Part shown: one piece after another, positions 1-14,932 of the stretch
Layout: each line of letters starts with the position of its first letter
Numbering within the stretch: the stretch's first letter is position 1
DNA from: a virus
Taxonomy: Duplodnaviria > Heunggongvirae > Uroviricota > Caudoviricetes
Virus record (IMG/VR): IMGVR_UViG_2660238190_000004
Location: 1 to 14,932 of that record
Length of the DNA stretch: 14,932 bases
Direction: 5' to 3' (one strand)
Notes under the pieces: model-generated
Seen by the model: only the letters and a program-made list of their open reading frames with translations
Databases searched by the model: none
Told to the model about the DNA's origin: nothing
Program-made: the position numbers and the translations under genes

Positions 1-282
1 TCAATAAATCCCATCATTGCGATCAACCTCATCCTTAACCATTGATGCGAGCAGTTCTTCCAGTTTCTGCGCTGACAGCTTTACCTGGTGATCTTCAGCA
101 TCTTCCCGGGCTATTGTGGTTCGCGCAGTGGCTGATTTTGCTGACATCACCACAGGGGGCAGACGGACCATTGAACCATGGCCTCCGGAACAAATAAGGG
201 CAAAAATAACAACCACTATCGAAAGCTTACAAACTAACCGCAGCACGTTCCTGCATACGACGTGTCTGCGGCATAATCCCAA
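1..282 (-). CDS. hypothetical small protein (uncertain; may start at an internal Met)
   Basis: Complete ORF ending with TGA at 1-3. An internal ATG ([13 protein letters not shown]...) has GGAGG about 10 nt upstream. Hydrophobic N-terminal stretch. No family recognised; its 5' end overlaps the tfa fragment. Confidence 0.2.
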
Positions 283-554
283 TGATTACTCCCTGACAGG
301 ATTTGCAGGCCACTCAATATCGGTGCAGTTGATGTATCAACACGATTCAACAATACCCGATATTTATTCCATGCCTCCAGCAACGATCTTTCTTCCTCCG
401 TTGCGATTTCCAGATCTACAGCATCCTGCAGTGGCGCAATATACTCACTGAATTCCTGGATGTAGAACTGTGTGGTGACGGTCTTCCAGCCATTCGTCTC
501 CTGCTGTATCGAAGCATACCAGGCTATTTCAATATCGCTATGCTGCGGCAGCAT
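234..554 (-). pseudogene. tail fibre assembly protein (Tfa) C-terminal fragment, frameshifted
   Basis: Translation contains [40 protein letters not shown], matching the C-terminal segment of the intact Tfa at 1334-1918. Relative to the intact copy a 1-nt difference ('ccgatattgag' vs 'cctgatattgag') shifts frame so the end reads [11 protein letters not shown]... instead of [11 protein letters not shown]. The N-terminal part is unrelated to Tfa. Confidence 0.6.
236..450. repeat. direct repeat copy 1 (about 215 bp, derived from the tfa 3' end plus downstream hairpin)
   Basis: Aligns by eye with 1285-1499 at high identity with scattered mismatches, from 'aaccgcagcacgtt...' through '...cagtggcgcaatatactcactg'. 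Confidence 0.8.
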
Positions 555-610
555 TTAACCCCTTGTAATTCATCGCCATAATTGATTTAATTCACAAATA
601 AAACTATAAC

Positions 611-1279
611 ATGGTGAAATCAATGAAAAAAAACACAGATGATGGGGCTAAAATTTACACACCACTTACCCTAAAGCTTTATGACTGGTGGGTTTTGGGA
701 GTATCAAATCGGCTTGCATGGGGATGTCCTACAAAGGAACACCTTCTTCCACACTATCTGGAACATGTAGGTAACAACCATCTGGATATTGGTGTTGGAA
801 CTGGGTTTTACCTTACTCACGTACCTGAGAGTAGTCTGATATCTTTAATGGATTTGAACGAAGCTAGCCTGAACGCGGCATCTACAAGGGCTGGGGAATC
901 AAAAATTAAACATAAAATTAGCCATGATGTTTTTGAACCTTATCCCGCGGCGTTACATGGTCAATTTGATTCCATTTCCATGTTTTACCTTCTTCACTGC
1001 CTGCCTGGAAATATATCTACAAAAAGCTGTGTAATACGCAATGCGGCGCAGGCCTTAACTGACGATGGAACTCTATACGGAGCCACAATTCTTGGCGATG
1101 GAGTTGTGCACAATAGCTTCGGTCAAAAACTGATGCGCATTTACAATCAGAAAGGCATCTTTTCAAACACAAAAGATTCCGAAGAAGGCTTAACACATAT
1201 ACTCTCAGAGCATTTCGAGAATGTTAAAACCAAGGTTCAAGGTACTGTAGTAATGTTTTCCGCTTCAGGGAAAAAATAG
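611..1279 (+). CDS. class I SAM-dependent methyltransferase (small-molecule or protein MTase type)
   Basis: 222-aa ORF with ATG start. Motif I LDIGVGTGFY (GxGxG SAM-binding loop), an acidic residue at the end of beta-2 (LMDLNE) and a motif II-like FDSISMFYLLHCLP. Visibly AT-rich compared with the flanking tfa sequence. Sits between two direct repeats. Resembles, from memory, the DLP12 ybcY position in E. coli K-12. Confidence 0.7.
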   Translation: MVKSMKKNTDDGAKIYTPLTLKLYDWWVLGVSNRLAWGCPTKEHLLPHYLEHVGNNHLDIGVGTGFYLTHVPESSLISLMDLNEASLNAASTRAGESKIKHKISHDVFEPYPAALHGQFDSISMFYLLHCLPGNISTKSCVIRNAAQALTDDGTLYGATILGDGVVHNSFGQKLMRIYNQKGIFSNTKDSEEGLTHILSEHFENVKTKVQGTVVMFSASGKK

Positions 1280-1284
1280 CATCC

Positions 1285-1499
1285 AACCGCAGCACGTTCT
1301 TGCTTAAGACGTGCTGCGGCATAATCCCAATGATTACTCCCTGACAGGGTTCGTAGGCCACTCAATATCAGGTGCAGTTGATGTATCAACACGGTTCAGC
1401 AACACCCGATACTTTTTCCAGGCTTCCAGCAATGAGGTTTCTTCCTCCGTTGCAATTTCCAGATCTGCAGCATCCTGAAGCGGCGCAATATGCTCACTG
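1285..1499. repeat. direct repeat copy 2 (overlaps the 3' end of the intact tfa)
   Basis: Second copy of the about 215-bp repeat; contains the tfa stop codon region and the downstream hairpin. Confidence 0.8.
1287..1319. terminator. stem-loop between convergent MTase (+) and tfa (-); putative bidirectional terminator
   Basis: Perfect inverted repeat 'ccgcagcacgt' / 'acgtgctgcgg' with an 11-nt spacer, located 8 nt after the MTase stop and 15 nt after the tfa stop. An A6 run at 1271-1276 gives a T-run on the minus strand about 10 nt beyond the stem, so it is not a textbook terminator. Confidence 0.35.
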
Positions 1500-1918
1500 G
1501 CTACCTGCATCAGGTTGTTTTTTGTTTCTTCCGCCTCCCGGATCCGGAACATTTTTTCTGCTTCCGTATCCTTCACCCAGGCTGTGCCGTTCCACTTCTG
1601 AAACTCCCCTTCCGGCGATAACCAGGTAACATTTTCCGGTAACGGACCGAGTTCAGAAATAAATAACTCGTCCCCTGACGCTACGTCATAAACCGTTTTA
1701 CCCCGATGGTCTTCAACGAGATGCCACGATGCCTCATCACTGTTGAAAACAGCCACAAAGCCAGCAGGAATATCTGGTGGTGCAATATCGGTACTGTTTG
1801 CTGGCAGACCTGTATGAGGCGGAATATATGCGTCACCTTCACCAATAAATTCATTAGTTCCGGCCAGCAGATTATAAATTTTTATGGTCCGTGCTTGTTC
1901 ACTCATTCTGAATGCCAT
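1334..1918 (-). CDS. tfa: tail fibre assembly protein Tfa
   Basis: 194 aa, [54 protein letters not shown]...[47 protein letters not shown]. Matches recalled lambdoid/e14-type Tfa proteins nearly end to end. Its ATG overlaps the stop of the upstream stf fragment (TAATG). Confidence 0.9.
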
Positions 1919-2304
1919 TATGCAAGCCTCACAATATAGTTAAATGCGATGTTTTTGACGGTGTTTTCCGCGTTACCAGCAGCGTTAACGGTGATGGTGT
2001 GTCCATGTGAACCAATCGCAACGGAGTGCGTATGCGCACCAATACCTACAGTATGTGCATGTGCGCCAGAACTTGCTGCAGTACCAGACAGCGAGTGGGT
2101 ATGAGCACCTGCTGACTGTGTCTGAATACGTTGATAATACGATCTACGGGAAGAAGTCCCCGGGCTTACTTGATACTGTGAATCCTGGACATAAGTGAAC
2201 CCACCGCCATCATAAAATGCTAACGCAGAACCGCCGCCTCCTGGCCAACGAATACCATTACCATGAGTATGATCACCGGCAGACCCCGTATTTACGCTGT
2301 AATG
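1918..2304 (-). pseudogene. stf: side tail fibre protein (Stf) C-terminal fragment, no start codon
   Basis: Hand translation of the minus strand gives ...[18 protein letters not shown]... and ends ...[26 protein letters not shown] with His-x-His repeat motifs typical of lambdoid side tail fibre C-termini. The frame opens just after an in-frame stop at 2305-2307, contains no Met, and abuts the Nu1 fragment. Confidence 0.75.
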
Positions 2305-2707
2305 TCAACGGCACACGCACAAGTATCCCCGAAATCTCCTGTGCCACACGTTGCAGAATGAAGGTAAACAGTTCAGTTTCCAGCACCACTCCGTCTTCAC
2401 GGGCATTTTTCAGTTCCTGCGCATCTGCCTGCGCTTTTGTGAGCCGGTAGCGTTCATAGTCAATGGTGCCGGGTTGTAAATCTGACTCCGCTGCCGCACG
2501 CAAATCGGCCAGTTCTTTGCGGAGCTTTTCGTTTTCGATATCAGTTTCCCTCTGCGCATACCACTGAATTGCCATGGCAGTATCAAATACAGATTCAATG
2601 CCCTTACTGCCTTTGGAGACGCAAGGGAGCCCCTGAGACTGCCAGCGTTCAATCGTCCGCGGGTCCACGTTAAAAATTTCGGCAAGCCTCTTTTTATTAA
2701 CCTTCAT
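2273..2707 (-). pseudogene. nu1: terminase small subunit Nu1, C-terminally truncated
   Basis: [105 protein letters not shown]... parallels lambda Nu1 (MEVNKKQLADIF...). Similarity stops about 5 codons before the stop (…[11 protein letters not shown]), and the protein is about 35 residues shorter than lambda Nu1. The track ORF begins at a TTG 8 codons upstream; the ATG at 2705-2707 aligns with the lambda start. Confidence 0.8.
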
Positions 2708-2839
2708 AGAACAACCCATTATCAAATACAAGGCCCGACATGAAAACGCCAGAAAAAGGCATTTTCGGACACTTTCATGTCGGACATTTATGAATGCAAT
2801 ATTAAAAAAAACAAAAAGTTATATTCGAGAAGTACCGAC

Positions 2840-2935
2840 ACGATTTTCCCTGAAAAATTTTCATAAATAGTGAAAAACCGCGAGGTCGCCGCCCCGTAAC
2901 GATCTGGATCACCGGAAAGGACCCGCCAACGACTT
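2840..2935 (-). other. cos site (cosB - cosN - cosQ) of the prophage
   Basis: Minus strand reads GGGGCGGCGACCTCGCGGTTTTTCACTATTTATGAAAATTTTTCAGGG, nearly identical to the lambda left end GGGCGGCGACCTCGCGGGTTTTCGCTATTTATGAAAATTTTCCGG. The 12-nt cohesive-end sequence is at 2883-2894. The other side (ccgtaacgatctggatcaccggaaaggaccc) matches the lambda right end/cosQ region. It lies immediately upstream of Nu1, as in lambda. Confidence 0.8.
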
Positions 2936-3117
2936 TCGCGTGCAGGCATTAAAAATTTTGCAGTTCCATGCCTAGTTGAAACCTCGATTTCTATAACATC
3001 CAATTTTGTAAATTTAGATATAGCTCAACTTTTCCCAATGTTTTCAAGTGTATAAAAACAATTGGCGTTACGCCATAACACTATACTTAGGATAAGTAAA
3101 GATTTTAAGGAGTTTTA

Positions 3118-4185
3118 ATGAGTCAACATCAATATTATCCACAGCTGAAATGGAAGCCTGCTGAATATGAATCTCTGATGCTTTTAGATCAAACTACGCT
3201 CTCTGGTTTTACTCCGATCATTACCATTCCAGACATAGACTGGGATTATGAAAACGAATGCTACAAGAAGAGTTTGAGTTCTTACTTATCTGACTTCGGT
3301 ATTAACCTTGCGGCATCCTGGAAAGCCAATCGTCCTGTTTTGCTGGATGTTAAATATTTAGATAAACATGGTTCGAGCCGCCATCATCCTCTAGATATGT
3401 GTATCCAAGATGCTAGAGTAAATGGTAAGGAAATTATCCCTGTTGTTTCTCCCGCATATTCAACAAACTATATACATGCTGTTCAACGCAACTTAATCAA
3501 TGGGCTCGCTATATCTATCACCCCCCAGACATGGCACCAATTCACAAGTCTGGTTAACCACTTAAATATTCATCCTAGTTTAATTGATGTAATCATTGAT
3601 TTTGGAGATATTCAAAACGCAACTGATAGTTTAAAACAACAAGCATTAAGCATGGTCAACACATTATCAGGCCAAGCTCCGTGGAGAAACTTGATTTTAT
3701 CTTCAACCGCATACCCGGCATCACAGGCAGGGATACCGCAACATCAAGTTCATCATATTCCGCGCCATGAATACGATCTTTGGATGTACGTAGTACAGAA
3801 TTTTAGCAATGGAAGAACGCCAAGTTTTAGTGATTATCCCACCGCTAGCTCTACCATTACGAGCGTAGACCCACGCTTCATGTCTCAGTATGTCTCAGTG
3901 AGATATTCGAACGATACCTCATGGATCTTTGTAAAAGGTACCGCAGTTAAAGGAAATGGATGGGGCCAAACTAAAAACTTATGTACTACCCTTGTTAGTT
4001 CGCCAGAGTATCAAGTCTTTGGCTCCAAATTTAGTTGGGGGGATGATTACATTTACCAAAGATCATTAGGCGCTAACAAATCTGGCGGCTCTAAAGAATG
4101 GCGTAAAGTTGCACATACGCACCATATTACGTTAGTCGTGAGACAGCTTTATTGGTTGGCGCAGACTCAGCCTGCCAAGCCTTAA
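3118..4185 (+). CDS. Beta-family-like protein (phage P4 Beta / sce7725-like), function unknown
   Basis: 355-aa ORF with ATG start and SD 'taaggag' 5 nt upstream. N-terminal YYPQLKWKPAEYESL...FTPIITIPD resembles the Y-x-P-x-L-K-x-K-x-G/A-E signature I recall for the Beta protein family. Markedly AT-rich. The family assignment is from memory and unverified. Confidence 0.65.
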   Translation: MSQHQYYPQLKWKPAEYESLMLLDQTTLSGFTPIITIPDIDWDYENECYKKSLSSYLSDFGINLAASWKANRPVLLDVKYLDKHGSSRHHPLDMCIQDARVNGKEIIPVVSPAYSTNYIHAVQRNLINGLAISITPQTWHQFTSLVNHLNIHPSLIDVIIDFGDIQNATDSLKQQALSMVNTLSGQAPWRNLILSSTAYPASQAGIPQHQVHHIPRHEYDLWMYVVQNFSNGRTPSFSDYPTASSTITSVDPRFMSQYVSVRYSNDTSWIFVKGTAVKGNGWGQTKNLCTTLVSSPEYQVFGSKFSWGDDYIYQRSLGANKSGGSKEWRKVAHTHHITLVVRQLYWLAQTQPAKP

Positions 4186-4747
4186 CTTTCCAGCCTACGC
4201 GTTTCTTTAAGGCTGTTCTGACTTCAGGCCTGAGATTCGCTATTGGAATATTTTCCGCAATAATATTCCATAACTCAAATCGGGGCTTGCTTTTGATTCC
4301 TTTGGAATAGCCCCATCGTTCAAGTACGTCGATACATTCATCTTTCCAAAGCAATTGAGCGAGCATCAATGTGTCATGGTTTCGATTAAGCTTTTCTCCA
4401 CGCATGTGCTTTATAAGAATGGCGCCTTTTGGCCCAACAGAAACCGTTTTAACGCCCCACCAACCTGGGATTAACTTTAATGCTCCCTCAAGGTGTTTCT
4501 CAGCTACGACAAGAGTAACCTTGTCCATTACAGAAGAATAATGCTTGATTTGAAGAGGCAAACGCTCCAAAGAGTCATATTCACTTTTGAGCTCGTACCC
4601 GTGTATAACACCATTTATTACAGCAATGTCTGCTCTACTGGCGCCAAGGGATATGGAAAATTCATCGACCACAAGGCAGTCTGGATCTAAATGCGATTCT
4701 TTCAAAAGCTTATGATGCACCGCGAACCTAACATCTTGATCTTTCAT
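4127..4747 (-). CDS. predicted PD-(D/E)xK-fold nuclease-like protein
   Basis: 206-aa ORF with ATG start and a strong SD (ggagggagtaaggag) upstream. Motif VVDEF...RADIAVINGVIHGYELKS gives E ... D-(hydrophobic strand)-ExK spacing typical of restriction-endonuclease-like folds. Convergent with the Beta-like gene and overlaps it by 59 nt at the 3' ends. Confidence 0.6.
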   Translation of the reverse strand: MKDQDVRFAVHHKLLKESHLDPDCLVVDEFSISLGASRADIAVINGVIHGYELKSEYDSLERLPLQIKHYSSVMDKVTLVVAEKHLEGALKLIPGWWGVKTVSVGPKGAILIKHMRGEKLNRNHDTLMLAQLLWKDECIDVLERWGYSKGIKSKPRFELWNIIAENIPIANLRPEVRTALKKRVGWKVKAWQAESAPTNKAVSRLT

Positions 4748-4768
4748 GACTTCTCCTTACTCCCTCCG

Positions 4769-4804
4769 TTATTGAATTATAGCGCACTGCATTTTACTGC
4801 ATTT
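4769..4804 (-). promoter_or_regulatory. putative promoter of the nuclease-like gene, with tandem direct repeats
   Basis: Consensus -10 TATAAT on the minus strand (plus coordinates 4776-4781), about 29 nt upstream of the ATG at 4747. Two tandem copies of 'actgcattt' (plus strand, 4786-4804) occupy the spacer/-35 region, where no good -35 hexamer is present. Confidence 0.35.
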
Positions 4805-5096
4805 GAGAGATTTGACCACTTCAATCACAAAATGCTTATCTGCAGCAACAAGATTCATAGCCATACGACTATGGTGATTACCTTTTGTCTGGAAAACTGA
4901 CCATTCCACGAAGATCAGATAGGTCTATAGAATCTTGGTTTGTCATAGCGTTCGTCTTACTTTGAGATGAACCTTTGCTGCATAGGAGATCAGCCCGTCA
5001 AGGCTCACCAGCACTAACTGACTACTCAAAGGCTCATTCCAAAGGGTTTGGTTCGACGTGGTTGAGTGCGCTGCGGTGCGCGGTGAAATACCTGTA

Positions 5097-5126
5097 CAAA
5101 AATGCCCCGCATCTGCGAGGCATTTT
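5097..5126. terminator. intrinsic terminator downstream of Rz/Rz1 (bidirectional hairpin)
   Basis: Plus strand 'aaaaaatgccccgcatctgcgaggcatttt': GC-rich imperfect stem flanked by an A-run on one side and a T-run on the other, giving a U-tract after the stem on either strand. Lies about 40 nt past the Rz stop. Confidence 0.5.
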
Positions 5127-5163
5127 CCTGAAAGTCACGTATTAAATTTCAGTGAAATTAAAA

Positions 5164-5622
5164 TTATTTTAAGCACTGCGTCCTGATGTACTCCTGCAGG
5201 TAGTTGACCTGAGCGGTTATCTTGTCGATTCCACTTCGGAGACGGTAATAATTGAGTTCAGCATCTGCTGTAAGTCTTGGGCTTTCTCCATCGCCCATGC
5301 TGCTGGCTCCGGTCGTTGACTTTGCACAGGTGGCGGCGACTTGCAGGCGCTTACGCCCAGCAGAAACATCAGCACGAAGACTTTCGATAGTCGCGTTAGC
5401 ATCAGCAAGCTCCTTTGTGTATCTGGCGTCGAGTTCTGCTACATCACGCTGACGCATCTGCATGTCAGTAATTACCACGTTCGCCAGCTTCAGTTCTCTG
5501 GCATTTTTGTCGCGCTGGGCTTTGTAGGTAATGGCGTTATCGCGGTAATGATTAACAGCCCATGACAGGCAGACGATGGTGCAGATAACCAGAGTATAAA
5601 TAATCGCTGCGACTCTGCTCAC
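5164..5622 (-). CDS. Rz: i-spanin Rz
   Basis: ...[76 protein letters not shown]... is nearly collinear with lambda Rz. Probable GTG start at 5620-5622 overlapping the endolysin stop (GTGA); the track ORF starts at a TTG 5 codons upstream. Confidence 0.9.
5217..5408 (-). CDS. Rz1: o-spanin Rz1 (lipoprotein) embedded in Rz in an alternate frame
   Basis: 63-aa ORF nested inside Rz. Signal sequence with lipobox-like LLGVSAC followed by a proline-rich segment ([16 protein letters not shown]), as in lambda Rz1. The exact start is uncertain. Confidence 0.8.
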
Positions 5623-6152
5623 TGATCTATCCCCCAACAGGCTAATGCGCTTTCCTGGTCACGACGAATAACCTGTCCATAGCAGTTATTTGAACGTATG
5701 CGGCAATCGCGCCCACCATCTTTTATCCACCAGCGAATCGCCTCGCATGCGCCCTTACGATCACCGGCATTCAGCCGCTTATAAAACGTCGACGGGAAAC
5801 ACTTACCGGGGCCAATGTTATAGGGACAGAATGACGCTATACCCGCTTTCTGTGGTTCGGTCAGTGGTACTTTAATATTGCGCTCCACCCATGCCAGCGC
5901 CTTATCACGTTCAATAGCGTTAACCTGGTCGCATTTTTCCTTCGACAGCTTCATTCCCGGTATGACGGGCTTACCATCCACCATTGTGGCACCACGACAG
6001 ATGGTCCATATACCGGAACCATCGCGGTATGCCGTAGTGTGGTTACCCTCTTTTTCATCCAGAAACTGGTCAAGTATTTGAGGAGCAGACGCGCCTGCAG
6101 CAATCAGCGCCAGAACAGCAGCTGACAGGCCGTATTTGATTTTTGCGCTCAT
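5619..6152 (-). CDS. endolysin, T4-type lysozyme (GH24) with N-terminal SAR/signal-anchor domain
   Basis: 177 aa. N-terminal weakly hydrophobic Gly/Ala-rich segment ([18 protein letters not shown]) followed by E-x8-D-x5-T catalytic spacing ([20 protein letters not shown]), paralleling the phage 21 R21 SAR endolysin. Confidence 0.9.
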
Positions 6153-6207
6153 GGATATTTATCAGGATGCTACCAATGAAAGATACTGGAAAGCCAACTG
6201 CAAAAAG

Positions 6208-6522
6208 CTAACAACCCGTAATCGAGTTATCAGAACTGTTAATTTTTATGGTATACCGCGCCTCTGAACAGGGGCGCGTTTCTGGCAACAGCTCGTCCCC
6301 TTCACATAACCCGGCAGCAACATCCATGAAGACCTGTCTGATGCTCCTTCTGGCTGCTGCCTCATAAAACTCCAGCGCGGCACCTTCAACACGGTCCAGC
6401 GAGATGTCCAGGTCAAAAATTTCACCGTCAAAGCGTTTTTTGTCCCGTAACGCTAAAGTTACCGTAACTTTATTCTCAAAATTGCGGATCCCTTTCACAA
6501 TCAGTTCATAGTTTTGAGTCAT
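6208..6522 (-). CDS. DUF1327-like protein (YdfR-like) between holin and endolysin
   Basis: 104-aa ORF with ATG start and SD (GGGGAGAG). The position between holin and endolysin is the same as ydfR in the Qin prophage, as I recall. The family call is from position and size, not a checked alignment. Confidence 0.55.
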   Translation of the reverse strand: MTQNYELIVKGIRNFENKVTVTLALRDKKRFDGEIFDLDISLDRVEGAALEFYEAAARRSIRQVFMDVAAGLCEGDELLPETRPCSEARYTIKINSSDNSITGC

Positions 6523-6526
6523 TGAA

Positions 6527-6742
6527 TTACTCTCCCCGTGCAGCCTTACGACGGTCCTCTCTGATTTTGAAATACAGGTTAGTCAGATATGTCAGCAGCC
6601 CAAACAGCAGACTCCCCAGCACGCCTATTGCCGCCCACTGAGACGGGGAAACCCTGTCCAGCAACTGCAGGAACCAGTAGCCCGTTCCCACCGCTGACGT
6701 GGTGTATGACACACCTGTTGTGATTTTTTCCATCTGGTACAT
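6527..6742 (-). CDS. class II holin (phage 21 S-like pinholin) with dual-start motif
   Basis: [71 protein letters not shown]: 71 aa, two TM segments, M-x-x-M dual start, charged C-terminus. Closely matches the recalled S21/EssD holin. The track ORF extends 26 codons further upstream, which is probably not translated. Confidence 0.85.
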
Positions 6743-6892
6743 ACCCCGTCTCCCGTTATCCGGAAGCTGACAACAATAAAAAAAGCCACCAGTTAAGTAC
6801 TGATGGCTCTGATAACTCATGCAGGCATCTCAGACGACCCACTGACACTACCGGTGAGTTTAACGATACCTTCCATTTGACTGGCTCACTTT

Positions 6893-14380: not shown

Positions 14381-14659
14381 TTACCTCCAGATACGTTGCT
14401 GGAATGTGCGGGACGGACGCGGTGGCCGTTCGGAGTAAGGGAGCCTGACGGAGATTATCCAGTGACGGTAGTCGAGGCTAAGGGCTTTTTTAACCTCGCA
14501 TCCGCGCCTGCGGTAACACTGAATGAGCCAATCGGCCTGTTCTTCAGTGCATGGGGGATGCTGGTACCAGTCTGACTTAAATGCATGAGAATACCGCTCG
14601 TGCGTGTGGGCAAGAACGGTCGAATTATCATGATTGTAATATTTTGCGTTGCGTGCCAT
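14381..14659 (-). CDS. hypothetical nin-region protein
   Basis: 92-aa ORF with ATG start and SD GGAGAAAA; translationally coupled to the downstream DUF968 gene. No family recognised. Confidence 0.5.
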   Translation of the reverse strand: MARNAKYYNHDNSTVLAHTHERYSHAFKSDWYQHPPCTEEQADWLIQCYRRRGCEVKKALSLDYRHWIISVRLPYSERPPRPSRTFQQRIWR

Positions 14660-14725
14660 CGGTTTTCTCCGGTGGCACGGTGTTACTCAGCGGGAGTTCA
14701 GCCCCGCGCAAGATTGTAGATGAGT

Positions 14726-14932
14726 TTATTCTTCTGAAAAAGCAGAAAAGCCAGCTTTTATTCCGATCTCTTTCAATGCCTGTAATGAAGTGACAAACTC
14801 ACCGTCGCGCAAGATAAATCCGTCCGTCACTCGGGCATCCACAAAATTAATTAACGCAGCCCCATTTTTTTGCAAACACACAATGCGGTAATGACTAACA
14901 ATATTTCCATTTTCAACGCACACAGCATAGAG
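14726..14932 (-). CDS. hypothetical protein, 5' end possibly outside the window
   Basis: Frame open to the window edge; the only in-window start is a GTG at 14921-14923. No family recognised. Confidence 0.25.
   Translation of the reverse strand, partial: LYAVCVENGNIVSHYRIVCLQKNGAALINFVDARVTDGFILRDGEFVTSLQALKEIGIKAGFSAFSEE

Follow-up and report, generated by a model that had tools for sequence, protein, structure and literature searches.

Why should an intact methyltransferase gene lie, pointing against its neighbours, between two direct copies of the end of a tail-fibre assembly gene? This question is raised by the first lines of IMG/VR virus record IMGVR_UViG_2660238190_000004, a Caudoviricetes sequence of which positions 1 to 14,932 (hereafter the window) were analysed. 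The first 2.7 kb of the window are the distal end of a lambdoid late operon on the minus strand, and in the direction of late transcription they comprise a 3'-truncated Nu1 gene, a fibre remnant, tfa, a hairpin, a convergent methyltransferase open reading frame (ORF), a short tfa' ORF, a second hairpin and a DUF4376 remnant. An initial annotation, made from the sequence alone, had proposed that the methyltransferase is a cargo gene captured by recombination within tfa. The likely answer is that window 236-1510 is a moron cassette in the post-tfa slot of a lambdoid prophage, the intact counterpart of ybcY/tfaX of Escherichia coli K-12, which moved through homology in the tfa 3' end and carries a small-molecule or lipid methyltransferase expressed by the lysogen.

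BLAST comparison of window 201-520 with 1250-1569 gave a single alignment of 236-450 with 1285-1499, covering 216 columns with 89.4% identity, 21 mismatches and two 1-bp gaps (E=3e-77). A repeat search returned three ungapped blocks, 221-264/1270-1313, 266-321/1314-1369 and 322-461/1371-1510 (77, 95 and 86% identity, respectively), so that the similarity extends ungapped to 461/1510. It is well above chance, and the direct repeats described initially, each with a tfa 3' end and a hairpin, are therefore real. Both copies, the left at 236-461 (also aligned with lambda and K-12) and the right at 1285-1510, are oriented on the minus strand and contain the last ~58 tfa codons and ~50 bp past the stop codon, including the hairpin. 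The right copy is the 3' end, with hairpin, of an intact tfa gene of the lambda Tfa type (1334-1918, minus strand; 194 amino acids), in which residues 72-191 match Caudo_TAP (PF02413; 1.3e-44). The tfa and methyltransferase genes converge on the right hairpin (1287-1320), which has an 11-bp perfect stem and folding energies of -23.0 kcal/mol (plus strand) and -28.5 kcal/mol (minus strand) (z about -5; equalled by none of 200 shuffles). A T-run (TTGGATGCTATTTTTT) is present past the stem on the minus strand only, and the hairpin is probably the late-operon terminator after tfa. The left hairpin (238-271) is bulged and weaker, with -17.9 and -22.0 kcal/mol on the plus and minus strands (z -3.1 and -2.5).

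Filled and empty alleles of the cassette were found at one prophage site. In strain 700481, an identical sequence forms part of a complete prophage, at its ompW end, beside yciE and the trp operon, in the order tfa-hairpin-methyltransferase-tfa'-hairpin-DUF4376'-ompW'. Strains EFF60 and PigCaeca_2 have the order tfa-hairpin-DUF4376'-ompW' at the same prophage end and site, minus exactly the 1049-bp unit. A synthetic junction, as left by recombination between both repeats, was matched against complete genomes, and 20 of them aligned with 100% of the junction as one piece (93-98% identity). The single repeat of EFF60 and PigCaeca_2 resembles the left copy over the hairpin and distal flank and the right copy in the direction of the tfa body; the switch occurs at ~264-289 in EFF60 and at ~296-322 in PigCaeca_2, the latter with a few later left-like sites. 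The cassette-less strains and their chimeric single repeat imply that homologous recombination within the conserved 3' end of tfa brought about either the gain or the loss of the cassette. Precise loss through the repeats, as anticipated in the initial annotation, is thus plausible. Capture of the cassette within tfa is compatible with the breakpoint, which lies inside tfa at 461/1510, but gain is not separable from loss. The empty ompW alleles also place the cassette between sequences that are adjacent in related phages, as expected of a moron.

Tfa proteins combine a variable, fibre-binding N-terminus with a conserved helical C-terminal domain that trimerises (PMC9608196). Since the repeat encodes this conserved domain, in DNA that is near-identical among many tfa genes, it may act as a homology patch between different fibre modules. 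Cassette edges and tfa' ORFs were compared in 80 IMG/VR prophage copies, in which the ends of homology recur at the outer edge of the right hairpin (1319) or in the tfa 3' end (1428, 1454 and 1462). Phage 2G7b has bare pieces of the tfa 3' end on both sides of the cassette, and the adjoining fibre and chaperone pair is unrelated. The 1049-bp unit comprises a methyltransferase gene directed against the late operon, an AT-rich spacer with its putative promoter, the short tfa' ORF and one repeat copy. We infer that this unit could be inserted, removed and moved between prophages by homologous recombination of the RecA or Red type, with the tfa 3' end and the hairpin as regions of homology, and that the hairpin may both end the late transcript after tfa and mark the edges of the slot. 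Expression would occur in the lysogen, controlled by H-NS, and would serve conversion or fitness and not the modification of phage DNA; the enzyme would act without a partner, methylating a small molecule or lipid common to Enterobacterales.

The closest known counterpart is prophage DLP12 of K-12, with the order nohD-aaaD-tfaD-ybcY(pseudogene)-tfaX-appY-ompT. Window 309-1772 is 96.8% identical to DLP12, the tfaD-ybcY-tfaX genes have the same order and orientation as in the window, and a truncated terminase is fused to a fibre remnant upstream in both. The methyltransferase gene has 98.8% nucleotide identity to K-12 ybcY. In agreement with the initial annotation, the K-12 layout is similar and its methyltransferase is a pseudogene: loss of 2 bp (window 625-626) abolishes ATG 623 and causes a frameshift, whereas the window gene is intact. 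Otherwise K-12 ybcY differs by five amino-acid substitutions and one silent change, with no further lesion. In K-12 tfaX, a TGA occurs prematurely and the distal hairpin is missing, while the corresponding tfa' of the window is frameshifted instead.

Lambda provides a second comparison. Its genome (NC_001416) has two direct copies of the hairpin, at ~22560-22608 (after tfa) and ~24161-24219, with ea47 between them. Window 214-272 matches the second copy, beyond ea47, at 88% identity (BLAST), and the left hairpin together with 22 bp distal to it is closer to this copy than to the tfa-adjacent one. Because the hairpin flanks both ea47 in lambda and the cassette in the window, and the left copy resembles the second copy of lambda, the methyltransferase cassette appears to occupy the ea47 slot, which has the same post-tfa position between two copies of the same hairpin. 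This suggests that a hairpin-bounded cargo slot after tfa is common to lambdoid phages. Morons, a concept of Hendrix and Juhala, are exemplified in lambda by bor and lom. Like these, the cassette has a single gene with a putative promoter region of its own, a flanking hairpin and a lower GC content (41.1% for the methyltransferase ORF, compared with 47.9% for tfa and 48.2% for the window), and it lies between sequences adjacent in related prophages. It differs from morons and ea47 in that its duplicated boundary reaches ~175 bp into tfa, creating the short tfa' ORF, and in that its cargo is a methyltransferase and not a membrane or surface protein. The cassette is already known as an annotated member of the YbcY/phrog_2132 family in a known moron slot of lambdoid prophages; because annotations of this arrangement exist for K-12 and thousands of RefSeq genomes, the window contributes no new kind of element.

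The methyltransferase ORF (611-1279, plus strand) is open and encodes 222 amino acids from ATG 611. The true start is probably ATG 623, giving 218 amino acids, because both the PHROG profile and every homologue from other genera begin there. GGTGA lies 5 nt upstream of ATG 623, and the -10 hexamer of the proposed ybcY promoter ends at 610, abutting ATG 611. The product matches phrog_2132 (E=1.2e-156; residues 5-222 on profile positions 1-218 of 218), which is annotated in PHROGs as function unknown, and is named class I S-adenosylmethionine (SAM)-dependent methyltransferase in RefSeq (WP_000241000.1). Closer alignment, which had been proposed as a check for disruption of the ORF, found none: the gene is intact in all 82 phage and prophage copies compared. 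The 16 alleles of this set have 14 synonymous and five non-synonymous segregating changes, corresponding to a ratio of non-synonymous to synonymous polymorphism (pN/pS) of about 0.10. The intact copies and this low ratio indicate that the gene is kept by selection. RefSeq also annotates a 45-amino-acid 'hypothetical protein' (WP_001309429.1) at 1224-1361 on the minus strand, over the 3' end of the methyltransferase gene and the hairpin; this call is most likely spurious.

Upstream of the gene, an AT-rich unique spacer (462-610) holds the putative divergent promoter region. It contains a candidate sigma-70 promoter for the methyltransferase gene, TTGATT-17-TATAAC (582-610, plus strand), located by reading the sequence for the hexamers given for ybcY by Shimada et al. 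2014 (PMC3946193), which fall at window 582-587 and 605-610. A second match to the promoter consensus lies at 555-582. Genomic SELEX (systematic evolution of ligands by exponential enrichment) showed binding of RpoD holoenzyme in vitro to the K-12 ybcY/tfaX spacer, which overlaps an H-NS site (PMC3946193). Prevalence was determined in 5426 complete E. coli genomes, with the gene counted at a nucleotide identity of at least 95%. The 149-bp spacer was found in 3821 genomes at 4812 places and the methyltransferase gene in 3832 genomes at 4877 places; the spacer always travels with the gene. A 'DinI family' fragment annotated by RefSeq at 456-536 (plus strand) was considered and set aside: Pfam gave nothing on either strand, and pN/pS was undecided between frames, with too few changes. 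The closest relative outside E. coli, in Citrobacter freundii (L101 5001-5996; 89% identity), is followed directly on the same strand by a full dinI-family gene, a neighbour that may be relevant to the RefSeq fragment upstream of the E. coli gene.

The gene was found in about 71% of the complete E. coli genomes (3832 of 5426), with up to four copies per genome, and the repeat-cassette-repeat unit (at least 80% coverage at one place) in 2736 of the 5426. It is therefore ordinary and very common cargo, and not unusual cargo for a site next to tail-fibre genes, as had been supposed; post-fibre cargo is the rule. Carriers among viable lambdoid phages are PhiR26_1, PhiR29, 2G7b, ev243, Kati and Turner, in which an alpha/beta-hydrolase gene, ompT and int follow. 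All 15 records with the gene in the phage collection are E. coli lambdoid phages with at least 98% amino-acid identity. Other cassette copies adjoin ompT, an ipaH-like gene of the leucine-rich-repeat (LRR)/NEL type, sodC, sopA or perC-like genes. At one locus (L075 4973-6616), a 547-amino-acid LRR protein of the ipaH/NEL type is encoded between cassette and fibre genes, and at another (L089 5155-7368) the same interval holds a yciG-yciF-yciE-Mn-catalase block. Tobe and colleagues (2006) reportedly described exchangeable effector loci, with virulence cargo, downstream of tail-fibre genes in lambdoid prophages of enterohaemorrhagic E. coli, Shigella and Salmonella. The position is the same here; however, there is no sign of secretion, and the gene is common in strains without type III secretion, including K-12.

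Relatives with 56-67% identity occur in Enterobacter, Salmonella, Yersinia, Klebsiella, Aeromonas and Citrobacter as solitary genes with long upstream spacers, often in horizontally acquired stretches beside insertion sequence elements, sodC, dinI, sopA or perC-like genes. A neighbourhood survey covering nine contexts in these six genera revealed no conserved partner gene. An assignment of function from gene neighbourhood was accordingly abandoned, as no neighbour was shared among the nine contexts.

The short tfa' ORF (234-554, minus strand; tfaX type) joins a 37-residue unrelated N-terminus, for which no Pfam match was found, to the C-terminal domain of Tfa. It matches phrog_2341 (1e-54), and its Caudo_TAP match is limited to residues 31-78 (profile positions 75-122). 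In the window, a 1-bp deletion near 321/322, toward the 3' end, shifts the frame, and the ORF reads 106 amino acids. A frameshifted downstream tfa remnant, as the initial annotation had it, therefore exists, but it is the left copy, 'downstream' only in the direction of tfa transcription, and the lesion is confined to the window and a minority of other copies. Most of the 80 IMG/VR copies, including 28 copies of the commonest variant, have an intact ORF of 88-89 amino acids with a normal Tfa C-terminus, whereas among the 25 distinct variants 10 have a truncation, a frameshift or a continuation into other sequence. Polymorphism (three synonymous and seven non-synonymous changes in one frame, four and five in the other) is too sparse to judge constraint on either frame. 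The tfa' ORF may be a by-product of the duplication, whether used or not. It could alternatively form a functional tail-fibre pair with the methyltransferase, either as a mini-Tfa that modulates assembly or with the enzyme methylating fibre or Tfa, since the two always travel together, both adjoin fibre genes and tfa' is intact in most copies. Nevertheless, such a pair is very unlikely: although the methyltransferase of the copies read is undamaged, tfa' is broken in a minority of them, in the window and in K-12; pN/pS of tfa' is about 0.4-0.6 on very few changes, compared with 0.10 for the methyltransferase; the relatives with 56-67% identity reside in chromosomes far from fibre genes; and the gene is retained where the prophage lost its fibre genes, as in the window and DLP12. 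The repeats themselves could instead be two copies of a small-RNA gene, conserved for that reason, given that the Rfam family IS009 (RF02111) matches 1377-1575 (minus strand) at 223.8 bits, above its gathering score of 117, and 328-531 (minus strand) at 112.3 bits, below it. However, both matches fall within the tfa reading frame, the right one inside the intact gene with its strong Caudo_TAP match, and in lambda, K-12 and these prophages alike it is the C-terminal domain of Tfa that the conservation tracks. As the matches lie inside tfa coding sequence, IS009 probably models the conserved segment encoding the Tfa C-terminus and not a small RNA, and its type in Rfam is given as 'Gene' only; an RNA origin of the repeats is exceedingly improbable. 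A weak CssrB match (32.6 bits) was also recorded over the right hairpin, at 1288-1350 on the minus strand. The Gin/Cin/Pin segments of Mu, P1, e14 and Rac resemble the window in having duplicated tfa-type sequence beside fibre genes. These segments are bounded by inverted repeats and are switched by a site-specific invertase between alternative fibre tips. In contrast, the repeats of the window are direct, its intervening gene is unrelated to fibres, and no recombinase or invertase ORF was found within window 1-2400; an invertible tail-fibre segment was therefore rejected.

The remaining alternatives concern the substrate of the enzyme. An intact class I SAM methyltransferase, as initially annotated, was recovered by Pfam (Methyltransf_12, 23, 25 and 11, all above cut-offs and all generic domains) and by the AlphaFold2 model (predicted local distance difference test, pLDDT, 91.6; predicted template modelling score, pTM, 0.88), which was computed from an alignment of 42 family members and has the seven-stranded beta-sheet with alternating helices of the class I Rossmann fold. 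Within this alignment D55-x-G57-x-G59-x-G61, which fits the class I motif I (D/E)xGxGxG, and D77, the acidic residue that closes strand 2 and contacts the SAM ribose in this class, are invariant, and the invariant motifs are YDWWVL, SNxxAWxC, HLDxGVGTG, D77, HD, FDSxSxxYLLHCLPG, GATILG and YNxKGIFSN. The family comprises 2296 clusters (90% identity, E<=1e-3), or 1336 representatives at 50% identity at E<=1e-3 and 198 at E<=1e-30, and nearly all members have 215-230 amino acids. The best Foldseek match is the phosphatidylethanolamine (PE) N-methyltransferase PmtA of R. thermophilum (8ys9; E=1.3e-11, TM 0.61-0.67), followed by JHAMT and many natural-product methyltransferases. Sequence identity to the structural neighbours (MM_2633 3dtn, BelI, PsmD, DhpI, Coq5, JHAMT, UbiG and R-type PmtA) is 11-22%. 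Among small-molecule and lipid class I methyltransferases no single enzyme stands out, and the YbcY family has invariant motifs of its own. A subfamily assignment by sequence also failed, with sub-threshold NCBIfam matches only (CpaM, RquA and PmtA) and PDB searches reaching JHAMT at 2e-6 and UbiG at 1e-3. Structure prediction, which had been recommended for assigning the subfamily, thus yielded a confident class I fold, with no subfamily standing out among its matches.

The modelled fold resembles small-molecule and lipid methyltransferases, not DNA methyltransferases, and the product is presumably a cytoplasmic stand-alone enzyme acting on a small molecule or lipid common to many Enterobacterales. 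Of the earlier suggestion of a small-molecule or protein rather than a DNA methyltransferase, the small-molecule part and the exclusion of DNA agree with the structural neighbours, which are small-molecule and lipid enzymes. A nucleic-acid methyltransferase, shielding phage or host DNA from restriction or modifying RNA, is highly improbable. DNA methyltransferases are characterised by (D/N/S)PP(Y/F/W) or PCQ/ENV catalytic motifs and a target-recognition domain. DPPY/NPPY or PCQ-type motifs are absent from the sequence and from the invariant columns, the 218 amino acids hold no target-recognition domain, and none of the top 50-60 fold matches is a DNA methyltransferase. Moreover, the gene opposes the late operon in direction and is read from a spacer to which H-NS binds, a DNA methyltransferase is already encoded elsewhere in the prophage (349 amino acids; 10504-11553, minus strand), and the chromosomal relatives lack a restriction partner. 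A defence system was likewise rejected, as PADLOC gave nothing significant (E=0.011). An R-type PmtA-like phospholipid or phosphoethanolamine N-methyltransferase, which would methylate PE or the phosphoethanolamine of lipopolysaccharide (LPS) and alter the envelope of the lysogen, is named by the best Foldseek match itself, near full length and of similar size, and by Plasmodium phosphoethanolamine methyltransferases, whose TM of 0.65-0.66 is among the highest (SgvM 8ftr 0.68, 3dtn 0.67). NCBIfam adds a weak match to Legionella PmtA; however, PLipidMtase_Leg scores 15.8 bits against a cut-off of 390. The catalytic and headgroup residues of Rt-PmtA are Tyr10, Ser120 and His147, and the protein has a C-terminal membrane-binding helix (PMC11446283). 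The invariant Y12, Y20, W22, W23 and W33 recall Tyr10, Trp13 and Tyr17 of PmtA (PMC11446283), and G57 and D77 lie at a constant offset of +4 from Gly53 and Asp73. This simple offset, anchored on G53/D73, nevertheless pairs His117 with F121 and Ser120 with L124, a pairing that would speak against conservation of both residues, and a PmtA-like activity is on the whole unlikely. A bolder version, in which YbcY-type enzymes are lysogenic-conversion methyltransferases that N-methylate an envelope amine (the headgroup of PE, or the phosphoethanolamine of lipid A or of the LPS core) in the manner of R-type PmtA or phosphoethanolamine methyltransferases, and in which the hairpin-bounded post-tfa slot (ea47, ybcY) is a general site of cassette exchange among lambdoid phages, is improbable as a whole. 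If true, surface charge, phage adsorption or host recognition would be altered when H-NS is relieved.

Several observations weigh against the moron cassette with a lysogen-expressed enzyme, which nevertheless remains the likely reading. Concerning expression, the region has no surplus of promoter consensus matches relative to shuffled sequence, and the K-12 gene is H-NS bound and may be silent in laboratory conditions. As to the hairpin, there is no T-run on its methyltransferase strand, the T-run of the tfa strand begins 10 nt past the stem, and a terminator scan gave no call at the right copy. Chimeric empty alleles are expected from insertion of a circle as from deletion, so that gain and loss are indistinguishable, and polymorphisms shuffled among tfa genes could mimic crossover points. 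Finally, the literature searched on ybcY/tfaX gives no substrate or phenotype, only lists, the promoter-SELEX entry and a negative knockout remark, and nothing was found on tail-fibre-adjacent methyltransferase morons.

What the cassette offers is a widespread, intact and selected enzyme of 218 amino acids without a functional study in the literature searched on ybcY; the K-12 reference copy is broken, and the gene may have been overlooked for this reason. The filled and empty alleles at one prophage site are a clean natural example of the Tfa C-terminal segment and hairpin as cargo joints.

The cassette is flanked distally by the 3' remnant of a DUF4376-type tail-fibre or assembly gene (1-189, minus strand), which matches phrog_1141 (tail fiber) and phrog_7703; an identical sequence in RefSeq is labelled as an incomplete DUF4376 protein with an internal stop. 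On the other side, window 1285-2016 (732 bp, including the whole of tfa/orf-194) has 94% nucleotide identity to lambda. Of the side tail-fibre gene, all is deleted but the final ~370 bp (1919-2289, minus strand); stop codons are present in the translated frame tried, and the RefSeq prophage match stops at window 2290. The fibre remnant is fused at 2289/2290 to the 3'-truncated gene for the terminase small subunit Nu1 (2290-2731, ORF 2273-2731, minus strand; Pfam Phage_Nu1, 1.2e-71). This junction had no match among the 5426 complete E. coli genomes; in strain 700481 and relatives the Nu1 and fibre halves lie 22,429 bp apart within one prophage; the strain of the window therefore appears to have undergone its own deletion of all head and tail genes. 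This deletion is parallel to, but independent of, the one at the nohD-aaaD junction of K-12 DLP12.

The stretch between Nu1 and the lysis genes is a frequent site of accessory and defence genes. In the window it holds a convergent overlapping pair, 3118-4185 (plus strand) and 4127-4747 (minus strand), named 'beta family protein' and 'sce7726 family protein' in RefSeq. Farther on, at ~6893-11553, lies a late-regulatory and lysis region with a SASA-family esterase gene, iraM, tRNA-Arg, tRNA-Ile, a Q-type antiterminator gene, rusA and a DUF968 gene; the DNA methyltransferase gene mentioned above lies at its end.

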